Source: an uncultured Candidatus Micrarchaeota archaeon (GTDB lineage Archaea; Micrarchaeota; Micrarchaeia; Burarchaeales; Fermentimicrarchaeaceae). From it: a stretch of DNA of 64,000 nucleotides. A model generated the notes under the pieces. The model had not been told where the DNA came from. It saw only the letters and a list, made by a program, of their open reading frames with translations, and did no database searches. Positions 27,782 through 49,930 of the stretch are shown here, in pieces. Positions within the stretch are counted from its first letter, which is position 1, and each line of letters starts with the position of its first letter. The position numbers and the translations under genes are program-made. The stretch covers positions 1-64,000 of the forward strand of contig CAVXDX010000012.1 in the NCBI GenBank assembly GCA_963760615.1, written 5' to 3'.

Positions 27782-27939
27782 ATTCGTCACCTCTCAGTTA
27801 CGATTTCAGTTTCAAGGTATATTAATATTGACTATATTCGAGTAAAGCTAGCTTGAATATTTAAAAGAGATACATACGCCAGTTTGGGACAGACTCTGTT
27901 TCTTTAGGTTTTATAAAGACAAAAAGGCATAATTTAACC

Positions 27940-28812
27940 ATGCCAGAAAACGTCAAATTTACGGAAGAGCGAAACTCGGAAGAAAAGGTACCGAGAAGGG
28001 AGCACCTCCAGCCTATCAAGGAGATTATCCACCAATTACATAAAAAGAAATTTGTCGAGCCAAGTTCAGTGAAAGCTGTGCTGCTGTATATAGAAATGGA
28101 TTGGGGGAGCGGTGAGCTGCAGAAATGGGCTGATGAGGTTGAACGGAAAAAAGAGAGACTAGAAAAAAAGTTTAAGGTAAATGAGAAGCTCACCACTGAG
28201 ATAAAAAGCATAATTGAGAGAGTGGGCACAGGTGTTCTAAGCGAGGATGAAATGAAAGAGGCTGAGAGGAGATTCAAAGGAGCGAAATATGCGTGGAGCC
28301 GCTATTCCATTATCCCTCTTATTGTCAAGGGTGGGCAAACAGCAGGCCATATTGAGCTGCTTAGAACTGCCCCGTTATTGGATGAGGTAGCGAGTTACGG
28401 GATAAAACTTCACGAGTCCGCCCATTTTATTCATCTTTTCATAGTTGAGAAGCGCCTTGAGAGCGGGGATATCAAAGACCCGATAATGAAAAGGCTTTAT
28501 GAGTACATGCACGGGAAATATAGCAACGAGATAATTGATGCCGCGGTGCGCGGCTATATCGGCCCGCGATATCAGGAGACCGTGGCGGAGGCTCTCATGT
28601 ACTGCGTGCTGCACAAGGGCGAAACACCTGACAAGCACAGGGATTTCAGGGTGGCTGACGAATTCAGGCTGCTCGGACATGACGTCAAGGAGCTGGGAAA
28701 CCTTTTCAAAAGCAACCCTGAGACATTCAGAAAGCTCGTGGAAAACCCCTCATGGTGGGTGGAAGCTGGCAGCGTTGAAAAACTTGTTGAAAAGTTGAAG
28801 GAACCGGGCTAG
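27940..28812 (+). CDS. Hypothetical protein with HExxH motif
   Basis: 290-aa ORF with own TATA; LHESAHFIH and downstream AEAL. Confidence 0.6.
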   Translation: MPENVKFTEERNSEEKVPRREHLQPIKEIIHQLHKKKFVEPSSVKAVLLYIEMDWGSGELQKWADEVERKKERLEKKFKVNEKLTTEIKSIIERVGTGVLSEDEMKEAERRFKGAKYAWSRYSIIPLIVKGGQTAGHIELLRTAPLLDEVASYGIKLHESAHFIHLFIVEKRLESGDIKDPIMKRLYEYMHGKYSNEIIDAAVRGYIGPRYQETVAEALMYCVLHKGETPDKHRDFRVADEFRLLGHDVKELGNLFKSNPETFRKLVENPSWWVEAGSVEKLVEKLKEPG

Positions 28813-28850
28813 TGACAATCTTAAAAAGGAGAAAAGGCATAATTTAGGAT

Positions 28851-29816
28851 ATGCCAGCATACAAGAAAGAGAAGGCGGAGGGCATATCAGAAAGCCACCC
28901 TGCTTCGAAAGTTGACGTCTTCCCAGACCACCTAAACACCAAGATTGGGGATTACAAAGTTCGCATAGACAAGGATGGGGTAAAAGCAAGGAAGGAAGTA
29001 AAGGACCTGACGGTTCAACTTGCGCGGATGGATTATGAACAGTGGTATTACCCGTCGTTAGGTCCGAATTTTGTAGATAAGAAAGAAATTAAGGTGCCTT
29101 CCATTGATCTTGTCGTATCGTTCAGTTTTGAAGACCTATCCAGTATAGCCGAGTTGAAGCCTAATGAGCTTAAGGGATATCCTGAAAGGACCTCCCAAAA
29201 TTGGATAAATGTGAACGTTTCTGCAAAATTCCTTATTGACGATAGGGAGATGGATATGAAAGGATTCACCAGGGGAGTTGTCAAGCATTCAATGCCTCGT
29301 TGGCTTACTGACGCCAAGGAATCCAAGCTTCGTGATGCCATTATTCTTGATGATGATTTCCGCGGCAAGCTTGCCGGTGACATCAGGATGCTTGCCAGGA
29401 AGGTTGACTGGATGCTGAAATTCGACCCAAATGCCTCTGTGTCATTCAAAGCGCTAATGGCTGCAAAGAAGGCGGGGATAGAAAACTTCGACAGAGAAGT
29501 CGAGAGTCTGACAATACAGGTTTTGGAAATATCAGAGAAATGCGATGTTTTCAAGAACCCGGACGCCCTGCTTCAACTGGCCGTTAAGGCAAGGGAACAG
29601 GAAAATGGCGAAGCCATAGTTCTTAAACTTGGCGTCGACCTTTTCATGGCAGCCCAATTCATCCGAGATGAAGCTAATAAGACGACTGACCCCGCTGCCA
29701 AGGCTTTCCGGGAAAACCAGGCAAAAAAACTGTATGCGCTTAGCCAGCTATTCCATGATTACGCTCTAAAGGACTTGAATGAAAAGAGAGACAAGAAGTC
29801 CAAGAAGGAGTCATAG
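28851..29816 (+). CDS. Hypothetical protein
   Basis: 321-aa ORF with own TATA and shared upstream motif; no recognised domain. Confidence 0.6.
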   Translation: MPAYKKEKAEGISESHPASKVDVFPDHLNTKIGDYKVRIDKDGVKARKEVKDLTVQLARMDYEQWYYPSLGPNFVDKKEIKVPSIDLVVSFSFEDLSSIAELKPNELKGYPERTSQNWINVNVSAKFLIDDREMDMKGFTRGVVKHSMPRWLTDAKESKLRDAIILDDDFRGKLAGDIRMLARKVDWMLKFDPNASVSFKALMAAKKAGIENFDREVESLTIQVLEISEKCDVFKNPDALLQLAVKAREQENGEAIVLKLGVDLFMAAQFIRDEANKTTDPAAKAFRENQAKKLYALSQLFHDYALKDLNEKRDKKSKKES

Positions 29817-29948
29817 ACGTTTTTCTGACATTTCTGAAATCATCTAGGCTTTCTTCTGGTTGAGGTAATGTAACTATGGTTACACAAACTACATGGAAAG
29901 GAAGTCAGTTTCTTTATGGTTTATAAGCTTAAAACGAGCAATTTTAGC

Positions 29949-31250
29949 ATGCCAGAAGCGCACAAGAAAGCAGTCTATACGCAGTCCTTGATAGACAACC
30001 CTAAGCTTTCAGAAGACAAGGTAACCGGTGAGTTCAAGGGATTCCCACTAGAATACAGGAACGGCGTGATATACCTAAGCAAGGAATACCACCACATACA
30101 TGCAATTATAGAGTGGTGGGATGAGGGAACGAAGGATTTTATCAAGAGACCGGTGGTATTCGATTCAGTCAAGGTTACTGCGGAATTCAGGGGGAAGGAA
30201 TTCGCACATGGATTCTACGGGGAGGATATAACAATTGACTGCGGTTACGCCACTGCGGAATTCAAGCTTGACGGGAAGAAGTACAAGGTGGATTACGGCA
30301 TATTTGAAGGCGACAATTCTAGTTGGTATCTGAACTACTACTCGGACTTCGACAATGACAAGAAAAGACTGTATTTCATGCGTCATTTCAACAGCAGAGT
30401 CATGGATGATTTCGTCCCATTCAGGGACCATGGGCTTGTGGATGTCCTCAGGTTTGACAAGCATGTTGCTCCGCTCTTCGAAATTGAGCTGGAAACAAGA
30501 AAGAAAAAGCATGAACTGGTTGAAGACTTGAAGCTGGAGGCGCAACAGATTGGCAGGCAATACGACATAGAAAGAAACCCCCTTCCTCTGCAGCCGATAT
30601 TCAAGAGGGCCAAGGAAGCAGGGGTGGTTGATAAACTCATAGGCGGACTGAGGAGGTGGGCCATGGACAGAAGAGAGCACATGTCAGATTGGGGAGAGGA
30701 GACGAGGTGGGTTTCGATTGAAGAGATTGCAAGCGGAAGGAGAAGGGAGAGCTTTGAGGACTTGGCAAGGAGGACTCAGGCAGAGAGGCTTGACAAGATA
30801 GCAGATGCGCTTCAGAAGTTCAACCAGAAACCCACTAAACAGCAGGAGAAGGAATCTGCGGAATGGCTTGCCTTCGACAATGCGTTGAAGAAGGTTGATG
30901 GAATGATGGCTGAGGAAAAGGACTGGAGCAGGGATACTGGTAAATTTGCCGCTCGTGTCATTGAGGAGATAAAGCCCATATGCGAGCCGAGAAAGTTTGC
31001 GGAAACCCTGAAAAGACTCATGGAGTTCAAGAAGGATGATGGAGTGGTTGAGCAACTCTCTGCACTTTACAGCCCTATGTATTTCAGGAACTTCATCAGA
31101 ATGATGGGTGGGGATATCAGCAATGAGGAACTTGAGGAGCTGTTCGGAAAGGGAAAGGAGCGCCTGGGAGAGTATGTGAGAGGCGTGGCTGATGAGACCA
31201 AGGGGAGGGAGCTTCTTCTTTTGAGCGAGGAGATTCTGAAGAGATGCTGA
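29949..31250 (+). CDS. Hypothetical protein
   Basis: ~433-aa ORF; start MPEAHKK inferred from TATA spacing. Confidence 0.6.
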   Translation: MPEAHKKAVYTQSLIDNPKLSEDKVTGEFKGFPLEYRNGVIYLSKEYHHIHAIIEWWDEGTKDFIKRPVVFDSVKVTAEFRGKEFAHGFYGEDITIDCGYATAEFKLDGKKYKVDYGIFEGDNSSWYLNYYSDFDNDKKRLYFMRHFNSRVMDDFVPFRDHGLVDVLRFDKHVAPLFEIELETRKKKHELVEDLKLEAQQIGRQYDIERNPLPLQPIFKRAKEAGVVDKLIGGLRRWAMDRREHMSDWGEETRWVSIEEIASGRRRESFEDLARRTQAERLDKIADALQKFNQKPTKQQEKESAEWLAFDNALKKVDGMMAEEKDWSRDTGKFAARVIEEIKPICEPRKFAETLKRLMEFKKDDGVVEQLSALYSPMYFRNFIRMMGGDISNEELEELFGKGKERLGEYVRGVADETKGRELLLLSEEILKRC

Positions 31251-31371
31251 ACAGCCAGCACACGGGCTCCTGACAGGAAGTTTGGGAGGGGGCAGCAGAC
31301 GATTAGCGGAAAGTTACCCCTTGCCAATGTTTTTAAACGACAAACCTAGTATCAATACAGAGGCGGGGTAA

Positions 31372-31818
31372 TTGGATGTTCTTTTAGATACAAATGTCTA
31401 CCTGGCGCATATAAAAGGTGAAATGCAGGGCTCTCATGCAAAAATTATACTGGAAAGGGTGGCAGCAGGGGAGCTTGCCCTTTGCTACAACGGCATAATC
31501 CGGATGGAAATAGAGAGAAAGTATGGGTATTACCTAGAACCGTTTTGCGCCATACTCGAAGAGCTGAGAAAATTAGGCAGAGTTGTGGATGTTGAAATCA
31601 CAAATGAGATGAGTGAAAAGGCAATACAACTCGATAGGAAGCTGATAAAATACAGAAGAGGAAAGGAAGAAAGATTCGGAAAGATTGATTGCTTGCTGAT
31701 ACTTCTTGCAAAGAAACATGGATGCATGCTTGTGACTATTGAGAAAGAATTAATTGAAGCCGCAAGAGAAGAGGGAGTCAAGGCAGTCAGTCCAATGGAT
31801 CTAGCGATGAGTTTCTAG
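31372..31818 (+). CDS. PIN-domain (VapC-like) nuclease
   Basis: LLDTNV, E, IDCLL..LA, LVTIE acidic tetrad. Confidence 0.85.
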   Translation: MDVLLDTNVYLAHIKGEMQGSHAKIILERVAAGELALCYNGIIRMEIERKYGYYLEPFCAILEELRKLGRVVDVEITNEMSEKAIQLDRKLIKYRRGKEERFGKIDCLLILLAKKHGCMLVTIEKELIEAAREEGVKAVSPMDLAMSF

Positions 31819-32130
31819 GTTCGCTTCCTTTATGAGCATGCCCAGAGCTTTACGTTCATTGTTATCCGCCCTCTTTAGAAAATCTTTCCACAACGATTTT
31901 CTGGCTGCCCTTCCTAGTTTTGCTGCGCTCTTTGCTCTATCTCGTTTAACACTCCCGAAAGTCTCCTCAATAATCTTTAATGCCCTTTGTCTTAAAAGTT
32001 CAGTCTTTCCTAATTTACTCATATCTTTTACGGCCTCACTTCTAGAGGTATAGTATCCTTCTTTAACCAGAATATCTATCTCCTCAACGTCTTTTACTGC
32101 ATACCGAACTGGTACGACAATGGATTTCAT
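31801..32130 (-). CDS. Ribbon-helix-helix (CopG-like) putative antitoxin
   Basis: V.VR....EID.LVKEGYYTSRSEAV; palindrome TGTATAC-N6-GTATACA (32131-50) abuts the start. Confidence 0.7.
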   Translation of the reverse strand: MKSIVVPVRYAVKDVEEIDILVKEGYYTSRSEAVKDMSKLGKTELLRQRALKIIEETFGSVKRDRAKSAAKLGRAARKSLWKDFLKRADNNERKALGMLIKEANLETHR

Positions 32131-32287
32131 TGTATACTAAAGCGTATACAGTATTTAAAAGCTTTTGCTGTTCGTATTAAGCCGAATTGTTATTTCATCA
32201 AGATTGATAGAATGACCAAGAGGGACGGGGGAATGTAACCCGGGTTACAAAGCAGGCTTAAATATCGGGAAAGGCATAATTTAAGGC

Positions 32288-32455
32288 ATGACAGAGGCAA
32301 AAAAGCCGGCTGCCAGCATGAGAAAAGATATAGAGCGGCAGCAGGAGAAGATGAGGGAGCTGTTCGACGAGCTCAAAGAAACCGTGAGCAAACCCAAATG
32401 GGATGAGAAGCCGAAGGGGTTCTTCACCGCGCTTGAGAAAAAGCTCGGCAACTAA
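32288..32455 (+). CDS. Small hypothetical protein (55 aa)
   Basis: Hand-translated MTEAKKPAASMRKDIERQQEKMRELFDELKE...LGN*; TATA and AAAGGCATAATTTA motif upstream. Confidence 0.55.
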   Translation: MTEAKKPAASMRKDIERQQEKMRELFDELKETVSKPKWDEKPKGFFTALEKKLGN

Positions 32456-32657
32456 CCTTAAGGCAACGGATATAATACACTTTGTCACGGCGGGTGAATC
32501 AAAATGTAACATTATACTGACTTCAGATGATGACTTTATTTCAGAAGGTACAAGATTTCTAAAGATGAAAAAAGAAGATGACAAGCTAAAGTTCTGTAAG
32601 CCTATCGAAAAGAATGTGCTAGATGCAGTTGATAATCTCACTAAAAAAGTTCCTTAA
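32456..32657 (+). pseudogene. C-terminal fragment of a PIN-domain gene
   Basis: LKATDIIHFVTA..KCNIILTSDDDF with no N-terminal half or credible start. Confidence 0.6.
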
Positions 32658-32692
32658 AGTATATAGATTTTTGTGTATAATATAGCATCCGT

Positions 32693-33020
32693 GAATCACT
32701 CGAAACCGTCCGGTTTTGCCAGAAAAAGCAAAAAAAGCGGTAAAATCCGGCAGAACAGGCAGTATCTCTCCAACTTCTTCAAAAATCCTGAAAAGCCAGC
32801 CTAGACCGGAGAAGCCGGCTCAGGCGTAAGCCTCTTCCGGCTGCGCCAAAGCGCAGCAAGTGTTAGTTTGACCGTTTCACGATGAAGAGAAAAAGCAGGT
32901 GAAACGGTAACCGATGCTGCTCAGACGTAAGCATATTCCGAACTGCCTACCGTTTCGACCGATTCTACAGACGTGTTTTATACCCTAGCAGAAATTTGAA
33001 AAAAAGCAGAAAGCTTACGC
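32693..33020 (+). ncRNA. Putative structured ncRNA of unknown family
   Basis: Long-range closing stems and at least five internal hairpins; repeated 14-mer and A-rich loop motifs; GU pair and GUAA loop favour + strand. Confidence 0.55.
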
Positions 33021-33053
33021 TATACTCGCAGTCAATGACTACTGCCCACCTCC

Positions 33054-33254
33054 CTACTTACTCAGAGCTTTTGCTATTACTATCAGAACTGGTGTTATGA
33101 TTGTCAGTGCTACTGCAGCTGTTATAACTTGTAGTATCTGAGAACCTAGTGGATTACTGGTTGTTATTAGATAGAGTGCTGCTAGTACGATGATTGCAAC
33201 TGTTCCACTTGCAATTCCAATTCCAAATATCTTCAGTGAACTCATGCCTTTCAC
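33054..33254 (-). CDS. Small two-TM hydrophobic protein
   Basis: 63-66 aa, two hydrophobic helices, SD-like GGAGGTGA and TATA-like TTTAAA upstream. Confidence 0.55.
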   Translation of the reverse strand: MKGMSSLKIFGIGIASGTVAIIVLAALYLITTSNPLGSQILQVITAAVALTIITPVLIVIAKALSK

Positions 33255-33574
33255 CTCCAGCCCTTACTCGCTAGAAAGGTTTTTAAATCGCCTCTTACAA
33301 AACTAGTAACAGTTATGTAAGAGGTGGTAGCGGGAGAGGTCATGGTTACACGTGTACCCTCCCCCATCTCTTTCTAGTTTTCAAAACTGCTATAATTTTG
33401 GAAGTAAAAGTTTTAATAACATATTGTCCAACAAATTCAGTCGCTCCGACGAGAAGATGCCGGAATGTGAGTTCTGCTGGTTCAATCGAAGTATTTTATA
33501 CCCGAATTGAAGATGCTGGTTTTTGTGCGAGTTGAGAGGCAGATATTTAAACCGAAAAATGCATAACTTATTCC

Positions 33575-33816
33575 GAGTGATGAGCCGGCAGCTTTCCCGC
33601 AAGGGAGGAAGTTCCACCCATCGCGAAGGCTGAGGGAACCTAAGGTTCGGACGGGAACAGAAACGAGACTGGCCGATTCAGATGAGGATGAAGCAATGAG
33701 ATGGGTCGAGCCGGGTGAAACGCGCCCGTCGCAAAAGCAGGATGTGCGATGCAAGGCCTTTGAGCCGCTTAGTCCAATGCTGTCTAAAACAAAAGGTGGG
33801 CTATGGCTCGTCACTC
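33575..33816 (+). ncRNA. rnpB: RNase P RNA
   Basis: P1 GAGTGATGAGCC/GGCTCGTCACTC, P2 GGCAGC/GCTGTC, P3 TCCC-GCAA-GGGA, CR-I GAGGAAGTTCCACC, ACAGAAAC, TGAAAC, CR-V ACAAAAGGTGGGCTA; TATA ~24 nt upstream. Confidence 0.92.
33770..33816 (+). repeat. 47-bp direct repeat copy 1 (rnpB 3' end; putative attL)
   Basis: TAGTCCAATGCTGTCTAAAACAAAAGGTGGGCTATGGCTCGTCACTC, identical at 35010-35056. Confidence 0.92.
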
Positions 33817-34326
33817 TTTCTGCTTGCTTGGCTTCTTTATGACAGGTTTTTCCTCTGGCTTTGTTTTCTGTAAAGTAAGCGCAAGCGACCATCCGATGGT
33901 TACTCCGCAGACCCACAAAAACCCGAAGATTATAGGACTGATGTCGGAATGGTATATCGGGCACGCATCCAAAATTCCAAATAGGGGTTTGTTGTATGGC
34001 CTTCCGGAGGTGCAGTGGAAAATGAATGGTATCAGCGCCAGTATGGCAATGAAGAAAAGGAAAGTGAGAATCCCGCTGGCAATCAGATCTATTGAATCCA
34101 GATGGTATATTCTCACCGCAGCGTAGCCGCCGCTGATAAAAATGATAAGGACAGCCAGCAGATACCCGAAGTAAAAGTTGCTTCCAAATGCAAATTGAGA
34201 GTAGCCCGGGAGAGAATCGTACATGGGCTCGGTTATTGCGTATATGAGAAATATCAAAGCCACTGGAATAAGCGATGCTTTCAGCATTTTCTTCCATTCC
34301 ATGAGACCACCCATCAGATATGCCAT
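33811..34326 (-). CDS. Hypothetical four-TM membrane protein
   Basis: 171-aa hydrophobic ORF with TATA TTTATAAA upstream; stop codon overlaps rnpB 3' end. Confidence 0.65.
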   Translation of the reverse strand: MAYLMGGLMEWKKMLKASLIPVALIFLIYAITEPMYDSLPGYSQFAFGSNFYFGYLLAVLIIFISGGYAAVRIYHLDSIDLIASGILTFLFFIAILALIPFIFHCTSGRPYNKPLFGILDACPIYHSDISPIIFGFLWVCGVTIGWSLALTLQKTKPEEKPVIKKPSKQKE

Positions 34327-34378
34327 TCCGAGATTTATAAAGTTTCACACCGGGGGCTTTTTTTCCAGCAGAATGCGC

Positions 34379-34699
34379 TTATAACTCCGTATGGATTACC
34401 TTGAGGAGCAGACCGTCCTTTATCTTTTCGAACAGCACAAGGTCCTTGTCATGAATCTTCTCCTCCTCAACCAGCTTCTCAGGCAGTGTGACCACTTTTG
34501 AATGCCCCACCACCCTCACCCTCCTGGCCAACGACTTCCTCCTGCCGGTCAGGACTTCCCACCTCAGCATTTCGCTTGAGGGAAAGAAGGTCTCGGAGCA
34601 GCCCTGGCACTTCCATCCTCTAATCCTGACGCCTTCGCTTACTTCCGTGTATTTTTTCAACGGTCCTTTGCAGATTGCGCATCTTTCCATAAACATCAC
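34379..34699 (-). CDS. Putative antitoxin: YgiT/MqsA-type Zn finger plus AbrB/MazE-like domain
   Basis: CAIC..CQGC.E.F followed by VRVVGHSKVVTLP. Confidence 0.75.
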   Translation of the reverse strand: MMFMERCAICKGPLKKYTEVSEGVRIRGWKCQGCSETFFPSSEMLRWEVLTGRRKSLARRVRVVGHSKVVTLPEKLVEEEKIHDKDLVLFEKIKDGLLLKVIHTEL

Positions 34700-34950
34700 C
34701 TCACAAGCTTCAGATGAATTAATATAATCTCCTTGTCAGTTTCGGCATAGACAAGCTCCCAAACTCCATTTTTTGCTTTCCTCTCAACCCTTACCTTCTC
34801 CTTGGATTCCTTCTCATGCTCTCCTTTCTCCAGGATTTCCAGAACAAAATCCAGATTTTTCCTGTATATGTTGTAAAGTTCATTCTTGAAATGCCCTGTC
34901 TCAATCAAATCTTTGTTCTTGAATCGCAGCTCTTCAGGCATATATCTCAA
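34696..34950 (-). CDS. Putative toxin (DUF4258/RelE-like)
   Basis: 84 aa, TGHF..E..LEILEKG..ELVYAE..ILIH; overlaps the antitoxin start. Confidence 0.55.
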   Translation of the reverse strand: MRYMPEELRFKNKDLIETGHFKNELYNIYRKNLDFVLEILEKGEHEKESKEKVRVERKAKNGVWELVYAETDKEIILIHLKLVR

Positions 34951-35009
34951 CTGAGTAAAGTATATACTCTTGGATATTTATATATCTTTCTATAATTGAG
35001 GCTTTGCTG

Positions 35010-35056
35010 TAGTCCAATGCTGTCTAAAACAAAAGGTGGGCTATGGCTCGTCACTC
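35010..35056 (+). repeat. 47-bp direct repeat copy 2 (rnpB 3' fragment; putative attR)
   Basis: Identical to 33770-33816. Confidence 0.92.
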
Positions 35057-35073
35057 ATTATTGTTTATTGTGT

Positions 35074-35949
35074 TCAGGCGATTCCGTACTGTTTTTTTAT
35101 CTCCTCGAAAGTAGGCAGGGCAAACTCCTTTCTTGCTTTTACTACTTCCTGAAAATCCTCAGGATTGACCCCGAGCTTCTTGGCTATGTCCTTCACATCT
35201 AACAGCTTAACCTTTGAAAGCTTTACTACTCCGAACCAGTGCATCGCCCTCACGTCATCCCAGAGAAGCTCGCCATTGGGGTTTTTCGCCAGCTCTTCTA
35301 TTATCTCCTTCCTGGCTGCATAAATCTTGTCGTCATCCCCGAGAATCCTGTTGTTGAAAAAAAGAAAGATTTTCGCAAACGTGACTTCCTCCATGTCTTC
35401 AGATTTTTTGCTGCCATCTGAAGGTTTGAAATTTCTTATTCTCTCTTTTGTTTCCTCAAGTTCGAAGATACGACCTCTGAGTTTCATGTTTTCATCTCCA
35501 AACTCGTGCATCACCAAGCTCGTTTCATGGTTATTGCTCTCATCCCTCAGTAGGACATGCACATCAACATCGCTCCTTGCCCCTGCGGTTCCTTTTGCCC
35601 AGCTCCCCATAAATGAAAGTCCTATAAACTTGTCCCCGTTAATGAATTTTAGCGCTTTCTCAGCTCTCCCCAGCAGCTCTATGAGTTCTTCATAGCGCTG
35701 TTTTTCCAAAGCAGTGCCCTTTCTACCTATAAACTCCGGGTATTCGGCTGACTTGAGGACTTCCGCCCTTGCGGCCTGCTTCAGCTCATTCTTGAATGAC
35801 TTCGTGAGAAACTTTTCAGCAGCAGCCCTTTCGTCATCTGACAGGATGCTTTTCTTCAGGGCTTCCTTGAAGTCTGAGCCTATCTCATCCCTGAGTTTTT
35901 GCTCTATCTGCTTGTCCTTTGAAATTTTCTGCATGTCTAGATTAGGCAT
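35074..35949 (-). CDS. Pol-beta-superfamily nucleotidyltransferase domain protein
   Basis: MGSWAKG.A...SDVDVHV motif. Confidence 0.72.
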   Translation of the reverse strand: MPNLDMQKISKDKQIEQKLRDEIGSDFKEALKKSILSDDERAAAEKFLTKSFKNELKQAARAEVLKSAEYPEFIGRKGTALEKQRYEELIELLGRAEKALKFINGDKFIGLSFMGSWAKGTAGARSDVDVHVLLRDESNNHETSLVMHEFGDENMKLRGRIFELEETKERIRNFKPSDGSKKSEDMEEVTFAKIFLFFNNRILGDDDKIYAARKEIIEELAKNPNGELLWDDVRAMHWFGVVKLSKVKLLDVKDIAKKLGVNPEDFQEVVKARKEFALPTFEEIKKQYGIA

Positions 35950-36125
35950 TTCTTTCTATTTAATCTTGCCTCCCCCCCAACAACCAAATTAACCAGTAAG
36001 ATTTCCCACCGGGGGCTTTTTTCCAGTTATGTAACCATGGTTACATTGCCTTGACACGGATTTATTTTGTTACAGTAACAAAAAATGCCTCTTTTCGTGC
36101 TGATTTTGTTATAATAACAAATTAA

Positions 36126-36407
36126 CTAGTCCGCCCCGCACCAGAATCCGCCGTACTTCTTTATGTACTTCTCCTCCTGCTTGAAATGCTTCCTGCAGAG
36201 GTAGCTCCATCCCGAGTCCTTTCCGATGTGGTAAACCTCCTTGAATGGTTCATCGGTGCAGCCCTTATAATCGCAGAAATGCCCCTCCATGTATCTTCTG
36301 GCGCATTTCTCGGAGCAGAACTCGCCGTATTTCTTCAGGGAGACTGCCTTCCTGCCCGTTTTTCCATCGCACCATCTGCACTCTCTTTCTCTACGCATGG
36401 TATGCAA
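36126..36407 (-). CDS. Small Cys/His-rich Zn-finger protein
   Basis: CRWC..FCSEKC and CDYKGC..LCRKH. Confidence 0.5.
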   Translation of the reverse strand: MHTMRRERECRWCDGKTGRKAVSLKKYGEFCSEKCARRYMEGHFCDYKGCTDEPFKEVYHIGKDSGWSYLCRKHFKQEEKYIKKYGGFWCGAD

Positions 36408-36750
36408 CTGCCTTTATCGATTTCCTATGGGCCGCTCCTTCACCGACGGATTGTCTTATCAGCGCAAGCTCTATCTTCTTTATTTCTTGCACTATTGGGC
36501 TTGCCTCGTTGAGCTGGTAGAGCTTTATCCTGCCAATCTGCCTTGTCACTTTCATTATGTTCCTTTCCTCAAGCCTGTCCCAGTATTTGTACAGGGTCGT
36601 CCAGCCAACTCCCGAGCCATTTGCTATTTCCTTCTTGGTGAAATCCCGCAGTCTGTTCTCCAGTAGGAAATCAATTATTCTGAATAATGGCGTGTCCCCG
36701 AAAAATTCAAGAAGAAGGGAACTACCACCGCTAGGGTCGCCAAGACTCAC
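36391..36750 (-). CDS. Winged helix-turn-helix protein
   Basis: FFGDTP..RIIDFL..FTKKEIA..GVGWTTLY..R.IGRIKLYQLN. Confidence 0.75.
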   Translation of the reverse strand: MSLGDPSGGSSLLLEFFGDTPLFRIIDFLLENRLRDFTKKEIANGSGVGWTTLYKYWDRLEERNIMKVTRQIGRIKLYQLNEASPIVQEIKKIELALIRQSVGEGAAHRKSIKAVAYHA

Positions 36751-36896
36751 TTATATCACCTCTAAGCATTATTATTAACAGTTAATAGTTAACACACAAA
36801 AGTATTTAAATGTTCGCTAATAAATATATGAGCATTCTTCAAAAAGAACAGTTGGAGAGTAGTCTGAGGTGACCGTGACTCCAACGGAGAATACGT

Positions 36897-37187
36897 ATGA
36901 GTGAGATTGACAGGGCATATTCAAAAGAAGAGCTTAAGGCGCACATTCTCTATAAGCTTGCAAGGAGGAGGATGTGGGGAGGCAAACACCTCCCGATTAT
37001 GTATGTCCGTTCTGGAATTCCTCAGAAATATTTGAGTCAGTTAGATGAGATTGCGAAGGAACTTATAAATGAAGGACTTCTCATTCAAGCTCCGAAAACA
37101 GGCCAGCTTCATGTCTCACTCAATCCGCGTATGAAGAGGGAAATAATTGAGCTGATTGAAAGACATTTCGGAAAAGTTTACTGGTGA
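36897..37187 (+). CDS. Hypothetical protein divergent from the HTH gene
   Basis: 96 aa, ILYKLARRRMWGGKH..KELINEGLL..VSLNP. Confidence 0.6.
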   Translation: MSEIDRAYSKEELKAHILYKLARRRMWGGKHLPIMYVRSGIPQKYLSQLDEIAKELINEGLLIQAPKTGQLHVSLNPRMKREIIELIERHFGKVYW

Positions 37188-37240
37188 AACACGAGCCACT
37201 CACCCTTTTAAATTTTCTATTTCACAACTAATACGCCAAG

Positions 37241-37364
37241 GCCAAGGTAGCTCAGCTTGGTTAGAGCACCAGACTCATAAGCTCAGCTTCATGAGTGATG
37301 AGCGCTATGCGCGATGATATGCTGCGTAATCTGGGTGTCGCGAGTTCAAATCTCGCCCTTGGCA
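37241..37364 (+). tRNA. tRNA-Met(CAT), elongator type, with 49-nt intron at 37/38 (37280-37328)
   Basis: GCCAAGG/CCTTGGC+A acceptor, CCAGA/TCTGG anticodon stem, lacks initiator A1-U72. Confidence 0.9.
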
Positions 37365-48631: not shown

Positions 48632-49930
48632 ACGAATATAACTTTTTTTGGCGGTGCTGGTGAGGTCGGAAGGAACTGTATACTGGTTGAGGATGGAAGG
48701 TCAAATCTTCTGCTTGATGCCGGCGTGAAGCTGGGGGAAACTGACGAATACCCGCTCATACGCGATGAAGAGGTAAGGACGCTGCACAGGATAGCAATAA
48801 GCCACACTCACTTGGACCACATGGGCTATCTGCCTTACATGTACGCAAGGGGGTGCAGGGCGACAGTATACTCGACAAAACCAACTCATGACCTGAGCCA
48901 GCTGCTGCTCGCGGATTACCAGAGGATAAACAGGGGTATGAAGTTCAGCAATAATGACATAATAAAGGCAATGAAGATGTGGAAGATGGTCGAGTACGGG
49001 GAGGTTGTCGGCGAAGGGCTAAAGTTCTCCTTCCACAAATCAGGTCATATACTTGGCAGCTCCATGGTGCTTGTGCAGGGCGACAGCAGACTGCTCTTCA
49101 GCTCTGATGTCAACGATAGGGAGACCAAGCTGCTCGACCCGGCAGAGAGGAACATTGTTGCAGAGAACCTCATAATTGAGAGCACTTACGGGGCTCCTGG
49201 GGATGAGCACCCTACTCTTAAGAACGCATCAAAGATGCTGTGCGACAGCATAAACAGGACAATCAAGAAAGGGGGAAAGGTTATCATACCGAGCTTTGCT
49301 GTGGGGAGGGCGCAGGACATACTTTTCGTCCTTGAGAGCTACATGAGTTCCGGAGTACTAGAGCATGTGCCGATATTTGTTGACGGGATGATACTGAAGG
49401 CAAACAGGATATACAGGCAGAATGTGATATATGCCAGAGATGAGATACAGAAAAGGATACTCATGAGCGATGACGACCCGTTCAAGAGCAAGTTCTTCCA
49501 CACTCCGCACACAAAGGACAGGAGCGATGTGATTGAGAGAGGTAGCGCAATAATTGTATCCACCTCAGGAATGCTTACAGGAGGTCCTGTGCTGCACTAT
49601 ATGGAGAAGCTTGCAGGGGATAGCAGGAATTTGCTCATCTTCGTTGGCTACCAAGCAGAAGGAACTCTGGGGAGGAAGCTGGTTGAGGGGCAGAAGCATA
49701 TGACCATAGACGGCAAGGAAGTTGAGATTAAGATGGGGGTTGAGCAGCTGTCTTTCAGCGCCCACGCGGACTATAAGGGTCTGCTTGACATAGTGAGGAG
49801 CACAAAGAAGCTGAAGAGGGTTTTCGTCATACACGGGGAGGGGGACAAGCCGAGGGAGCTTGGAGAGGCCATAGGGAAGATGGGATATGAGGTTGTTATA
49901 CCCAGGAATGGAGAGAGCTTCAGGATTTAA
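48632..49930 (+). CDS. MBL-fold beta-CASP ribonuclease (aCPSF-like)
   Basis: FFGGAGEVGRNC upstream of track start, SHTHLDH, GHILGS, ESTYG, FAVGRAQ, SGMLTGG, FSAHAD, HGE. Confidence 0.88.
   Translation, partial: TNITFFGGAGEVGRNCILVEDGRSNLLLDAGVKLGETDEYPLIRDEEVRTLHRIAISHTHLDHMGYLPYMYARGCRATVYSTKPTHDLSQLLLADYQRINRGMKFSNNDIIKAMKMWKMVEYGEVVGEGLKFSFHKSGHILGSSMVLVQGDSRLLFSSDVNDRETKLLDPAERNIVAENLIIESTYGAPGDEHPTLKNASKMLCDSINRTIKKGGKVIIPSFAVGRAQDILFVLESYMSSGVLEHVPIFVDGMILKANRIYRQNVIYARDEIQKRILMSDDDPFKSKFFHTPHTKDRSDVIERGSAIIVSTSGMLTGGPVLHYMEKLAGDSRNLLIFVGYQAEGTLGRKLVEGQKHMTIDGKEVEIKMGVEQLSFSAHADYKGLLDIVRSTKKLKRVFVIHGEGDKPRELGEAIGKMGYEVVIPRNGESFRI

Follow-up and report, generated by a model that had tools for sequence, protein, structure and literature searches.

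Why does the end of an essential ribozyme gene recur, base for base, little more than a kilobase downstream of the gene itself? The question is raised by a 64,000-nt stretch of DNA (the window) on a 72-kb contig of an uncultured archaeon, in which rnpB, the gene for RNase P RNA, is followed by three small genes and then by a second copy of its own last 47 nt. The source (G000) is a Micrarchaeota metagenome-assembled genome (MAG) from the genus including Ca. Fermentimicrarchaeum, a draft of 1.14 Mb in 16 contigs, and its rnpB 3' end finds matches in MAGs under the label Candidatus Fermentimicrarchaeum limneticum Sv326, as well as in other Micrarchaeota. An earlier inspection of the letters alone (the sequence-only reading) had taken the 1.24-kb islet for a minimal, integrase-less toxin-antitoxin element inserted at rnpB. 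Here we compare the locus with those of congeners i.e., G002 (CP058998), G003 and G004, each set against 27-44 kb of the window, with related rnpB loci (handles beginning with L) and with other Micrarchaeota. We consider it very likely that the repeat is an insertion scar at an rnpB hotspot, the interval between rnpB and a tRNA-Met gene being a place where cassettes of 1.2-2 kb are stacked in this genus.

The rnpB 3' end is duplicated exactly

The intact rnpB gene matched the archaeal RNase P family of Rfam along the full model (positions 1-288) with 86.3 bits, against a gathering score of 84, and is 90-96% identical to the rnpB of congeners. The repeated core spans the gene from the conserved single-stranded joining region before P2 to the last base of helix P1, and its two copies, which start 1240 nt apart, agree over 47 nt with zero mismatches (Table 1). 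They are the only two copies in the genome. Even the right-hand 19 nt of the core were found at these two sites only when all 16 contigs were searched with up to three mismatches allowed, and none of 100 dinucleotide shuffles yielded a match. No rnpB body lies upstream of the second copy, and exactly three minus-strand open reading frames (ORFs) lie between the two. The locus therefore has what marks a site-specific element i.e., the 3' part of an RNA gene recurs in direct orientation, and the complete gene stands at one end. Of the 29 species genomes examined in the order, only the window genome had two core copies.

Congeneric genomes hold the empty site

In G002, rnpB is followed directly by the gene of a 292-aa protein which is 41% identical to the nucleotidyltransferase-domain protein (NTase, 291 aa) encoded beyond the second core copy of the window, and the DNA after that second copy aligns with the DNA after rnpB in G002. 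Judged from this alignment, G002 is the exact empty site for the 1.24-kb segment. In G003 and G004, only a spacer of ~75-105 nt separates rnpB from the intron-containing tRNA-Met gene that occupies 37241-37364 of the window, which makes all of 33817-37195 accessory. Since rnpB is often found beside an intron-containing tRNA gene in other Micrarchaeota genera too, this adjacency is ancestral. The flanks of the two copies are also informative. The relatives read GTCACTC and then A, as does the second copy, and the first copy continues into the tail of the membrane-protein gene; the right-hand copy thus carries the native flank, as expected of attR. A parallel case is provided by L038, in which rnpB is followed by a gene for a 236-aa protein, a ParE/RelE-like pair, a 46-nt rnpB copy and then a PsbP-like gene. 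Its empty-site counterpart is L037, where the PsbP-like gene stands directly at rnpB.

Much of the sequence-only reading is borne out by these comparisons. The recurrence of the last 47 nt of an intact rnpB was confirmed by repeat search, both in its coordinates and in its exactness, and the attL/attR-type signature proposed for it is supported by the intact gene, the repeated 3' fragment and the empty sites. The empty site that this reading would have relatives retain was found exactly in G002, and G003 and G004 are likewise without the insert. Relatives do not, then, share the duplication with no empty allele and no variable cargo: empty alleles occur in G002-G004, and the cargo varies over eight loci.

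Copies of the rnpB end delimit cassettes across the genus

Metagenomes were scanned for rnpB arrays with one 41-nt pattern, a scan that att sites shorter than this escape. All seven contigs retrieved, which come from several samples, carried rnpB together with one or two extra copies of its 3' end. The extra copies measure 46 nt in L038, 37 nt and 24 nt in L042, 30 nt in L037 (about 40 nt with one gap), 24 nt in each of L039 and L041, 17 nt in L040 and 16 nt in L043, the last with a gapped remnant of the left part in front of it. They all stop at the same base i.e., the 3' end of rnpB. A further contig from the Sequence Read Archive (L108) has both of its ends inside long core copies, which is compatible with a circle or with an integrated form. 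As the control set we took 20 Micrarchaeota genomes from other genera, each with the 10 kb to the left and to the right of its rnpB, and within these distances no 14-mer of a genome's own rnpB had a second copy.

The copies delimit units of 1.2-2 kb whose genes lie almost wholly on the minus strand. Four classes of cassette carry a toxin-antitoxin-like operon directly left of the rnpB copy, with a different pair in each class. Class 1, that of the window, has an 81-aa RelE-fold-like putative toxin and a zinc-ribbon MazE/AbrB-like partner. In class 2 (L038 and L043) the pair consists of a ParE/RelE-like protein of 87 aa (E 0.0098) and a protein of 80 aa, and in class 3 (L042 and L037) of a ParE-like protein of 133 aa (E 2.5e-4) and one of 95 aa. 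Class 4, which was found in G001, L039, L041, L042, L043 and L108, encodes a 187-aa minimal (MNT-type) nucleotidyltransferase (Polbeta, E 1.8e-10) and a 115-aa partner; the latter may be HEPN-like, the one pointer being an R-x5-H motif in a protein encoded beside the MNT gene. The rnpB-proximal gene of a cassette often specifies a small membrane or secreted protein, PsbP-like in L037, L038 and L043, and several such ORFs extend into the rnpB fragment, where its TCA or CTA, read in reverse, supplies their stop codon.

In the window itself, older units lie outward of the islet. The NTase is an older resident of the site, and between its promoter region and the tRNA-Met gene stands a third cassette, which is 80.5% identical at the nucleotide level to L040, where a 17-nt rnpB copy follows it. 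This third cassette was not found in G002, G003 or G004. A homologue of 36068-36121, within the NTase promoter/operator region, precedes a partial rnpB copy in L039, L041, L042, L043 and L108.

The islet combines a membrane-protein gene with a toxin-antitoxin block

The 171-aa product of the rnpB-proximal gene is hydrophobic, belongs to no Pfam family and is predicted to be a membrane protein. Its synthesis likely begins at a leaderless start a few codons into the ORF. The last codon and stop of the ORF (GAG TGA) lie inside the rnpB-derived core, where they coincide with the final 6 nt of rnpB. Homologues are encoded in L040, L043 and L108 as well, and the gene invariably adjoins the right-hand side of an rnpB copy. 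Its neighbour is rnpB itself in the window and L040, the second copy in L043 and, in L108, a core copy that the contig end truncates.

The genes of the putative toxin and antitoxin overlap by 4 nt. Homologues of the toxin use the ATG that gives 81 aa, and in homologous loci the antitoxin gene always accompanies the toxin gene; a pair of 81 aa and 103-105 aa is kept together in at least three distinct neighbourhoods, as is the rule for type II pairs. The antitoxin matched Pfam MazE_antitoxin (E 0.0053) and NCBIfam doc_partner (E 4.7e-4), both under the curated cut-offs. For the toxin, an AlphaFold model built from only 6 sequences (pLDDT 75.7) was compared with known structures using Foldseek. 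Ranks 1-36 were all RelE-group toxins or RelE-fold proteins (YafQ, HigB2, YoeB, RelE, ParE and Cami1; E 0.04-0.4), and the list overall was dominated by RelE, YafQ, HigB2, YoeB and ParE, at E 0.04-0.6 and a TM of about 0.5. In the model, then, the fold resembles that of the RelE/YafQ/ParE group, and its role as a toxin is putative. Cassette proteins were scanned with Pfam, NCBIfam and PHROGs and by PDB sequence search, in which the toxin, the membrane protein, the HEPN-like partner and several other cargo proteins gave no significant match. Against the DUF4258 profile (PF14076), the 81-aa toxin gave no match even at E up to 10, and the only pointer to that family is an ESM feature lead (0.87). 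Of the contents that the sequence-only reading had assigned to the islet, the membrane-protein gene and the zinc-finger/AbrB-like partner (weak matches) stand, whereas the label "DUF4258-like" is backed by no hidden Markov model.

The promoter, toxin and antitoxin form a block that is conserved as a unit. It is 84-88% identical over 621-635 nt to L053-L061, which do not adjoin rnpB, and it occurs in at least two other neighbourhoods without an rnpB fragment, e.g., beside an SMC gene. Because the block recurs away from rnpB, the islet is to be seen as an assembly of modules.

Cassettes have spread between lineages

The MNT cassettes of L041 and L042 are 93.4% identical over 1049 nt, as compared with 75.9% over 2511 nt for the adjacent downstream core coding DNA, and, counted from rnpB, the cassette takes first place in the array of L041 and second place in that of L042. 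In L108, the gene for a membrane-protein homologue with 78% identity to that of the window is likewise enclosed by two core copies, but its partner there is the MNT pair and not the toxin-antitoxin pair of the window. On these comparisons, cassettes have spread horizontally between lineages.

No recombinase gene accompanies the cassettes

No integrase was detected in the islet or on the 72-kb contig, the matches to PF00589 being confined to three places on contigs C8 and C14, and Pfam and PHROGs scans of the cassette proteins revealed no recombinase. The sequence-only reading had called the islet integrase-less, and this holds for the islet, the contig and the related loci alike. The three recombinases of the genome (C14:74300-75511, C8:48553-49758 and C8:73177-74382) are XerA-like proteins of about 401 aa with a C-terminal zinc ribbon; genomes of the family have 0-8 such genes. 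A scan of genome contigs for the core returned only the rnpB genes of five congeners, and an element with the 47-mer next to an integrase, for which the sequence-only reading had advised a search, was found neither in the genome nor in the related genomes and viral contigs scanned.

The same genome shows the same architecture with the enzyme still in place, at a tRNA-Glu gene (contig C14, 55248-81000; loci L106 and L107). Here a 20-kb element has a 403-aa tyrosine recombinase at its end. A 27-nt copy of the 3' end of tRNA-Glu with its flank stands 90 nt from the recombinase gene (74300-75511), the tRNA gene itself lying 20 kb away. Three further partial copies of the tRNA, at 76.9, 79.9 and 80.9 kb, bracket integrase-less segments, which include a gene for a Fic-domain protein and two paralogous genes of 254-301 aa. 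The two arrays are thus alike in that partial 3' copies of an RNA gene bracket integrase-less segments, and they differ in that a tyrosine recombinase stands beside one copy of the tRNA array and beside none of the rnpB array. A 9-mer (CTATGGCTC) common to the core and to the hairpin after tRNA-Glu was noticed post hoc and was given no weight.

Further observations concern the recombinase genes themselves. On contig C8, an exact 27-nt direct repeat (36195-36221 and 49822-49848, 13.6 kb apart), one copy of which lies 64 nt from a 401-aa recombinase gene, probably marks another integrated element. The third recombinase gene is 94 nt from a tRNA-Leu gene. In G002, three identical recombinase genes at 341-415 kb are spaced by exactly 25,989 bp, which reflects either a tandem triplication of a 26-kb element or a repeat created by the assembly.

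How the cassettes may enter the site

On balance, we favour a model in which small circles insert at the rnpB hotspot by means of a recombinase supplied in trans. A circular DNA of ~1.2 kb, bearing the membrane-protein gene, the toxin-antitoxin pair and a copy of the rnpB 3' end, would undergo Campbell-type recombination with the chromosomal rnpB 3' end. This would rebuild rnpB intact at the left and leave the displaced native 3' fragment, with the native flank, at the right, and each new insertion would shift older units outward. The recombinase would need only the last ~16-24 nt of rnpB, perhaps with the first bases of the flank; candidates would be the XerA-like zinc-ribbon recombinases of the genus or the integrase of a co-resident element. 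The toxin-antitoxin pairs may penalise loss through recombination between copies, which would explain the persistence of these cassettes. As no cassette encodes a recombinase, a site-specific (tyrosine) recombinase acting in trans would be the most likely agent, an attribution that we make tentatively and with slightly more doubt than assurance. Insertion at rnpB, which the sequence-only reading had proposed, is thus supported by the empty sites, the arrays and the cargo, whereas no gene for the tyrosine recombinase that it invoked was found at the site.

Several observations weigh against this model. By tblastn, none of the genome's three recombinases had a match in the 13 related rnpB loci checked for integrases, so that no recombinase is linked to the site. 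Exact scans of viral contigs with the 47-, 22- and 17-nt cores returned nothing, or three chance matches in unrelated high-GC contigs. The core showed no resemblance to the DNA upstream of integrase genes (local scores of 7-10, with 10 of 21 loci scored and without a shuffled control), and no contig with the terminal overlap of a circular form was found among those tested. Nothing is common to the cassettes except the rnpB fragment, common arm sites included. The copy that accompanies the MNT cassette measures 24 nt in four loci and 33 nt or more in L108, and such variation within one cassette type fits poorly with a single fixed crossover point. Finally, the 26-nt motif in the promoter region of the membrane-protein gene recurs at 35997-36022 with 23 of 26 positions identical; there are two copies in the genome and a single one at the matching junction of L040. 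An additional 1659 bases, which take in the toxin-antitoxin block, the 47-nt copy and the NTase gene, are present in the window as compared with L040 and are bracketed by the 26-nt repeat. A 1.66-kb insertion flanked by that repeat would be an equally good reading of the local history. Other short shared motifs, too, are thus sites at which recombination reshapes the array, and the moved unit need not be exactly 33817-35056. The "minimal 1.24-kb element" of the sequence-only reading is indeed bracketed by core copies, but it is a mosaic, and the exact unit that entered cannot be fixed.

The cassettes might alternatively be remnants of a larger integrase-bearing virus or plasmid at rnpB, whose integrase and most other genes were deleted or whose neighbour with the integrase was excised, and might never have been mobile as 1.2-kb units. 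Such erosion would have a counterpart at the tRNA-Glu gene of the same genome, where a 20-kb integrase-bearing element stands beside integrase-less segments with partial tRNA copies, and in Prochlorococcus islands, which hold degraded elements with partial tRNAs (bioRxiv 10.1101/2020.12.28.424599); reshuffling of the array by other recombination, as at the 26-nt repeat, would fit it too. We nevertheless regard it as unlikely, given that no integrase, whole or fragmentary, was found beside at least five independent copy classes in 13 loci, and that the integrase-less MNT cassette, 93% identical where core genes are 76% identical and differing in array position, must have spread in its present small form. 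Distinctly unlikely, in our view, is entry through host homologous recombination with no site-specific enzyme, in which DNA with an rnpB fragment (e.g., circles from other arrays) would use rnpB, tRNA and promoter motifs as anchors. It would accommodate the varying copy lengths, rnpB as the sole common sequence, the breakpoints at other short shared motifs and the movement of the toxin-antitoxin block among unrelated contexts without an rnpB fragment. However, 16-24 nt is a short substrate for homologous recombination, and copies of 16, 17 and 24 nt are among those found; all copies moreover share an exact end base, which suggests a defined site, and the 20 other genomes, with an equally conserved rnpB, have no copies.

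That a separate molecule, either a free circle or the locus of another strain, was threaded in at the 47-mer during assembly is a concern with this 16-contig metagenome-assembled draft, the more so as the rnpB of a congener is split over two contigs. Against this, the junction of toxin promoter and 47-mer must exist in some real molecule, the right flank agrees with the empty site of G002, and a like duplication occurs in eight other assemblies from different samples and pipelines; because eight independent assemblies show the same pattern, misassembly is very improbable. It is also hardly to be believed that the rnpB fragments are not scars and are kept for use, for instance with an antisense TTTTGTTTT run that terminates convergent cassette genes. 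Several cassette ORFs do end within the fragment, and copies of at least 37 nt have the T-run on their antisense strand, but the 16-24-nt copies do not, and the empty sites and the origin of the copies would be left unexplained, so that such a use would be secondary at most. Target duplication by a transposon was rejected, 47 nt being far too long and the IS6-family transposases of L038 and L043 lying away from the junctions. These transposases (DDE_Tnp_IS240, with an N-terminal zinc finger; L038 11779-12585 and L043 622-1455) stand at the outer edge of the arrays.

Surroundings of the array

The features of the rnpB region are listed in Table 1.

Table 1. Features of the rnpB array in the window
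Feature	Position	Strand	Basis
RNase P RNA gene (rnpB), intact, 242 nt	33575..33816	+	Rfam RF00373
attL-side 47-nt core, the last 47 nt of rnpB to the final base of P1	33770..33816	+	exact repeat
Cargo gene, predicted small multi-pass membrane protein, 171 aa	33811..34326	-	ORF; homologues right of rnpB copies
26-nt motif, first copy (contains CACCGGGGGCTTTTTT), promoter region of the membrane-protein gene	34338..34363		two genome copies only
Toxin-antitoxin block (promoter, toxin, antitoxin), conserved as a unit	34364..34998	-	matches in L053-L061
Putative antitoxin, 106 aa, N-terminal CxxC...CxxC zinc ribbon and C-terminal AbrB/MazE-like domain	34379..34699	-	weak profile matches
Putative toxin, RelE/YafQ/ParE-like predicted fold, 84-aa ORF, 81 aa from ATG at 34941	34696..34950	-	structure model
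attR-side 47-nt core, native flank after it	35010..35056	+	exact repeat
NTase, nucleotidyltransferase-domain protein, 291 aa, older site resident	35074..35949	-	Pfam NTP_transf_2 E 1.3e-5
26-nt motif, second copy (35997-36022), GTAACCATGGTTAC palindrome (36031-36044) and two TTTGTTA-N3-TAACAAA palindromes (36064-36121)	35997..36121		NTase promoter/operator region
Third cassette: 93-aa Cys-rich (-), 119-aa winged-helix-like (-), 96-aa (+)	36126..37187		L040 homology
Intron-containing tRNA-Met, anticodon CAU read by eye, conserved right border	37241..37364	+	Rfam tRNA 57.6 bits

The DNA directly upstream of rnpB is also variable. A segment of 5.7 kb (27866-33540) is missing from G002, G003 and G004, in which a cupin/BofA-like pair abuts the rnpB promoter. 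It contains ORFans of 290, 321 and 444 aa, a pair of the PIN/ribbon-helix-helix type and a PIN gene that is broken, and parts of it recur upstream of rnpB in L038 and L041. Within this segment, 32690-32970 is a candidate structured RNA of ~280 nt (fold z-score -4.08) that belongs to no Rfam family. G004 has a 79% homologue, which is not on the contig that carries rnpB there, and in L038 the candidate lies directly upstream of rnpB. In the window it is followed by an insert of 518 nt that contains a 66-aa membrane ORF, and an imperfect 32-nt repeat of the RNA's end (32954-32985 and 33472-33503) brackets this insert. In G003, rnpB is split over contigs C37 and C14 with a 130-nt overlap (rnpB positions 62-191), which suggests that this sample holds strain variants to the left as well as to the right of the gene.

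The genome has eight instances of a GTAAC-N4-GTTAC palindrome (36031-36044, 32235-32248, 29870-29883 and five others), the majority of which lie a short way upstream of accessory genes, and in L040 and L108 the palindrome stands at module junctions of the rnpB array. At the right border, the tRNA-Met gene has an intron of ~50 nt with GUGAUGA and CGAUGA motifs (box C/D-like), and an 11-nt stretch of the gene is identical to the 5' end of rnpB.

Comparison with known systems and implications

The rnpB array resembles integrative elements that target tRNA or tmRNA genes, such as bacterial islands and archaeal pNOB8- and SSV-type elements, in its intact RNA gene with a displaced 3' copy, in a block of identity that reaches the 3' end of the gene, in the empty sites of relatives and in stacking at one site. 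It differs from them in its target, in the small size of its units (1.2-2 kb), in the absence of an encoded integrase and in the regular toxin-antitoxin cap. A 2021 review of archaeal tyrosine recombinases makes no mention of RNase P (PMC8371274), and our literature search found no paper naming rnpB as an att site and neither this target nor this style of cassette described for archaea. In large island databases 22.8% of sites are classed as intergenic, and unrecognised rnpB cases may therefore exist among them.

Other systems share part of the pattern. The tycheposon islands of Prochlorococcus likewise have RNA-gene hotspots, scattered partial copies of RNA genes, newcomers that displace older elements outward and much integrase-less DNA (bioRxiv 10.1101/2020.12.28.424599); however, tycheposons measure 10-20 kb and carry integrase and replication modules, whereas at rnpB no such complete element was seen and toxin-antitoxin pairs dominate the cargo. 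Chromosomal integrons are alike in their ordered, small cassettes, mostly in one orientation and without a recombinase of their own, and in toxin-antitoxin cassettes that plausibly stabilise the array. Identity with an integron was rejected: neither IntI nor attI, nor indeed any recombinase, was found on the 72-kb contig, the 13 loci likewise have no IntI or attI, the separators are fragments of a host RNA gene and not attC hairpins, and the cassettes have promoters of their own. Elements that borrow the host Xer recombinase at dif (IMEX) are also integrase-less and stack in tandem at one site, and three XerA-like enzymes are encoded in this genome; unlike dif, however, the site here is the rnpB 3' end, and the DNA beside the XerA-like genes does not resemble the core.

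As a speculative extension, which we think unlikely on present evidence, the rnpB 3' end may be the docking site of an integron-like but differently built gene-capture platform, at which a recombinase encoded elsewhere, either a XerA-like zinc-ribbon enzyme of the chromosome or one from a helper element, would insert and excise promoter-bearing mini-cassettes of 1-2 kb that carry only a short mimic of the rnpB end and are locked in by toxin-antitoxin pairs. If so, these genome-reduced symbionts would have a dedicated route for the exchange of surface and defence genes. Should a trans-acting recombinase that needs ~16-24 nt prove to be responsible, the enzyme and its site would make a compact archaeal integration tool, as well as a natural case of integrase-less cassette mobilisation. 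With an essential ribozyme gene as the anchor, annotators should expect rnpB fragments as markers of islands, as they do tRNA fragments. The genomes of DPANN archaea are tiny, and little is understood of the way in which these organisms acquire and trade genes; here a short interval between two RNA genes takes up cassettes and swaps them across lineages, with a cargo of membrane and secreted proteins, of nucleotidyltransferases and of no fewer than four kinds of toxin-antitoxin-like pairs.

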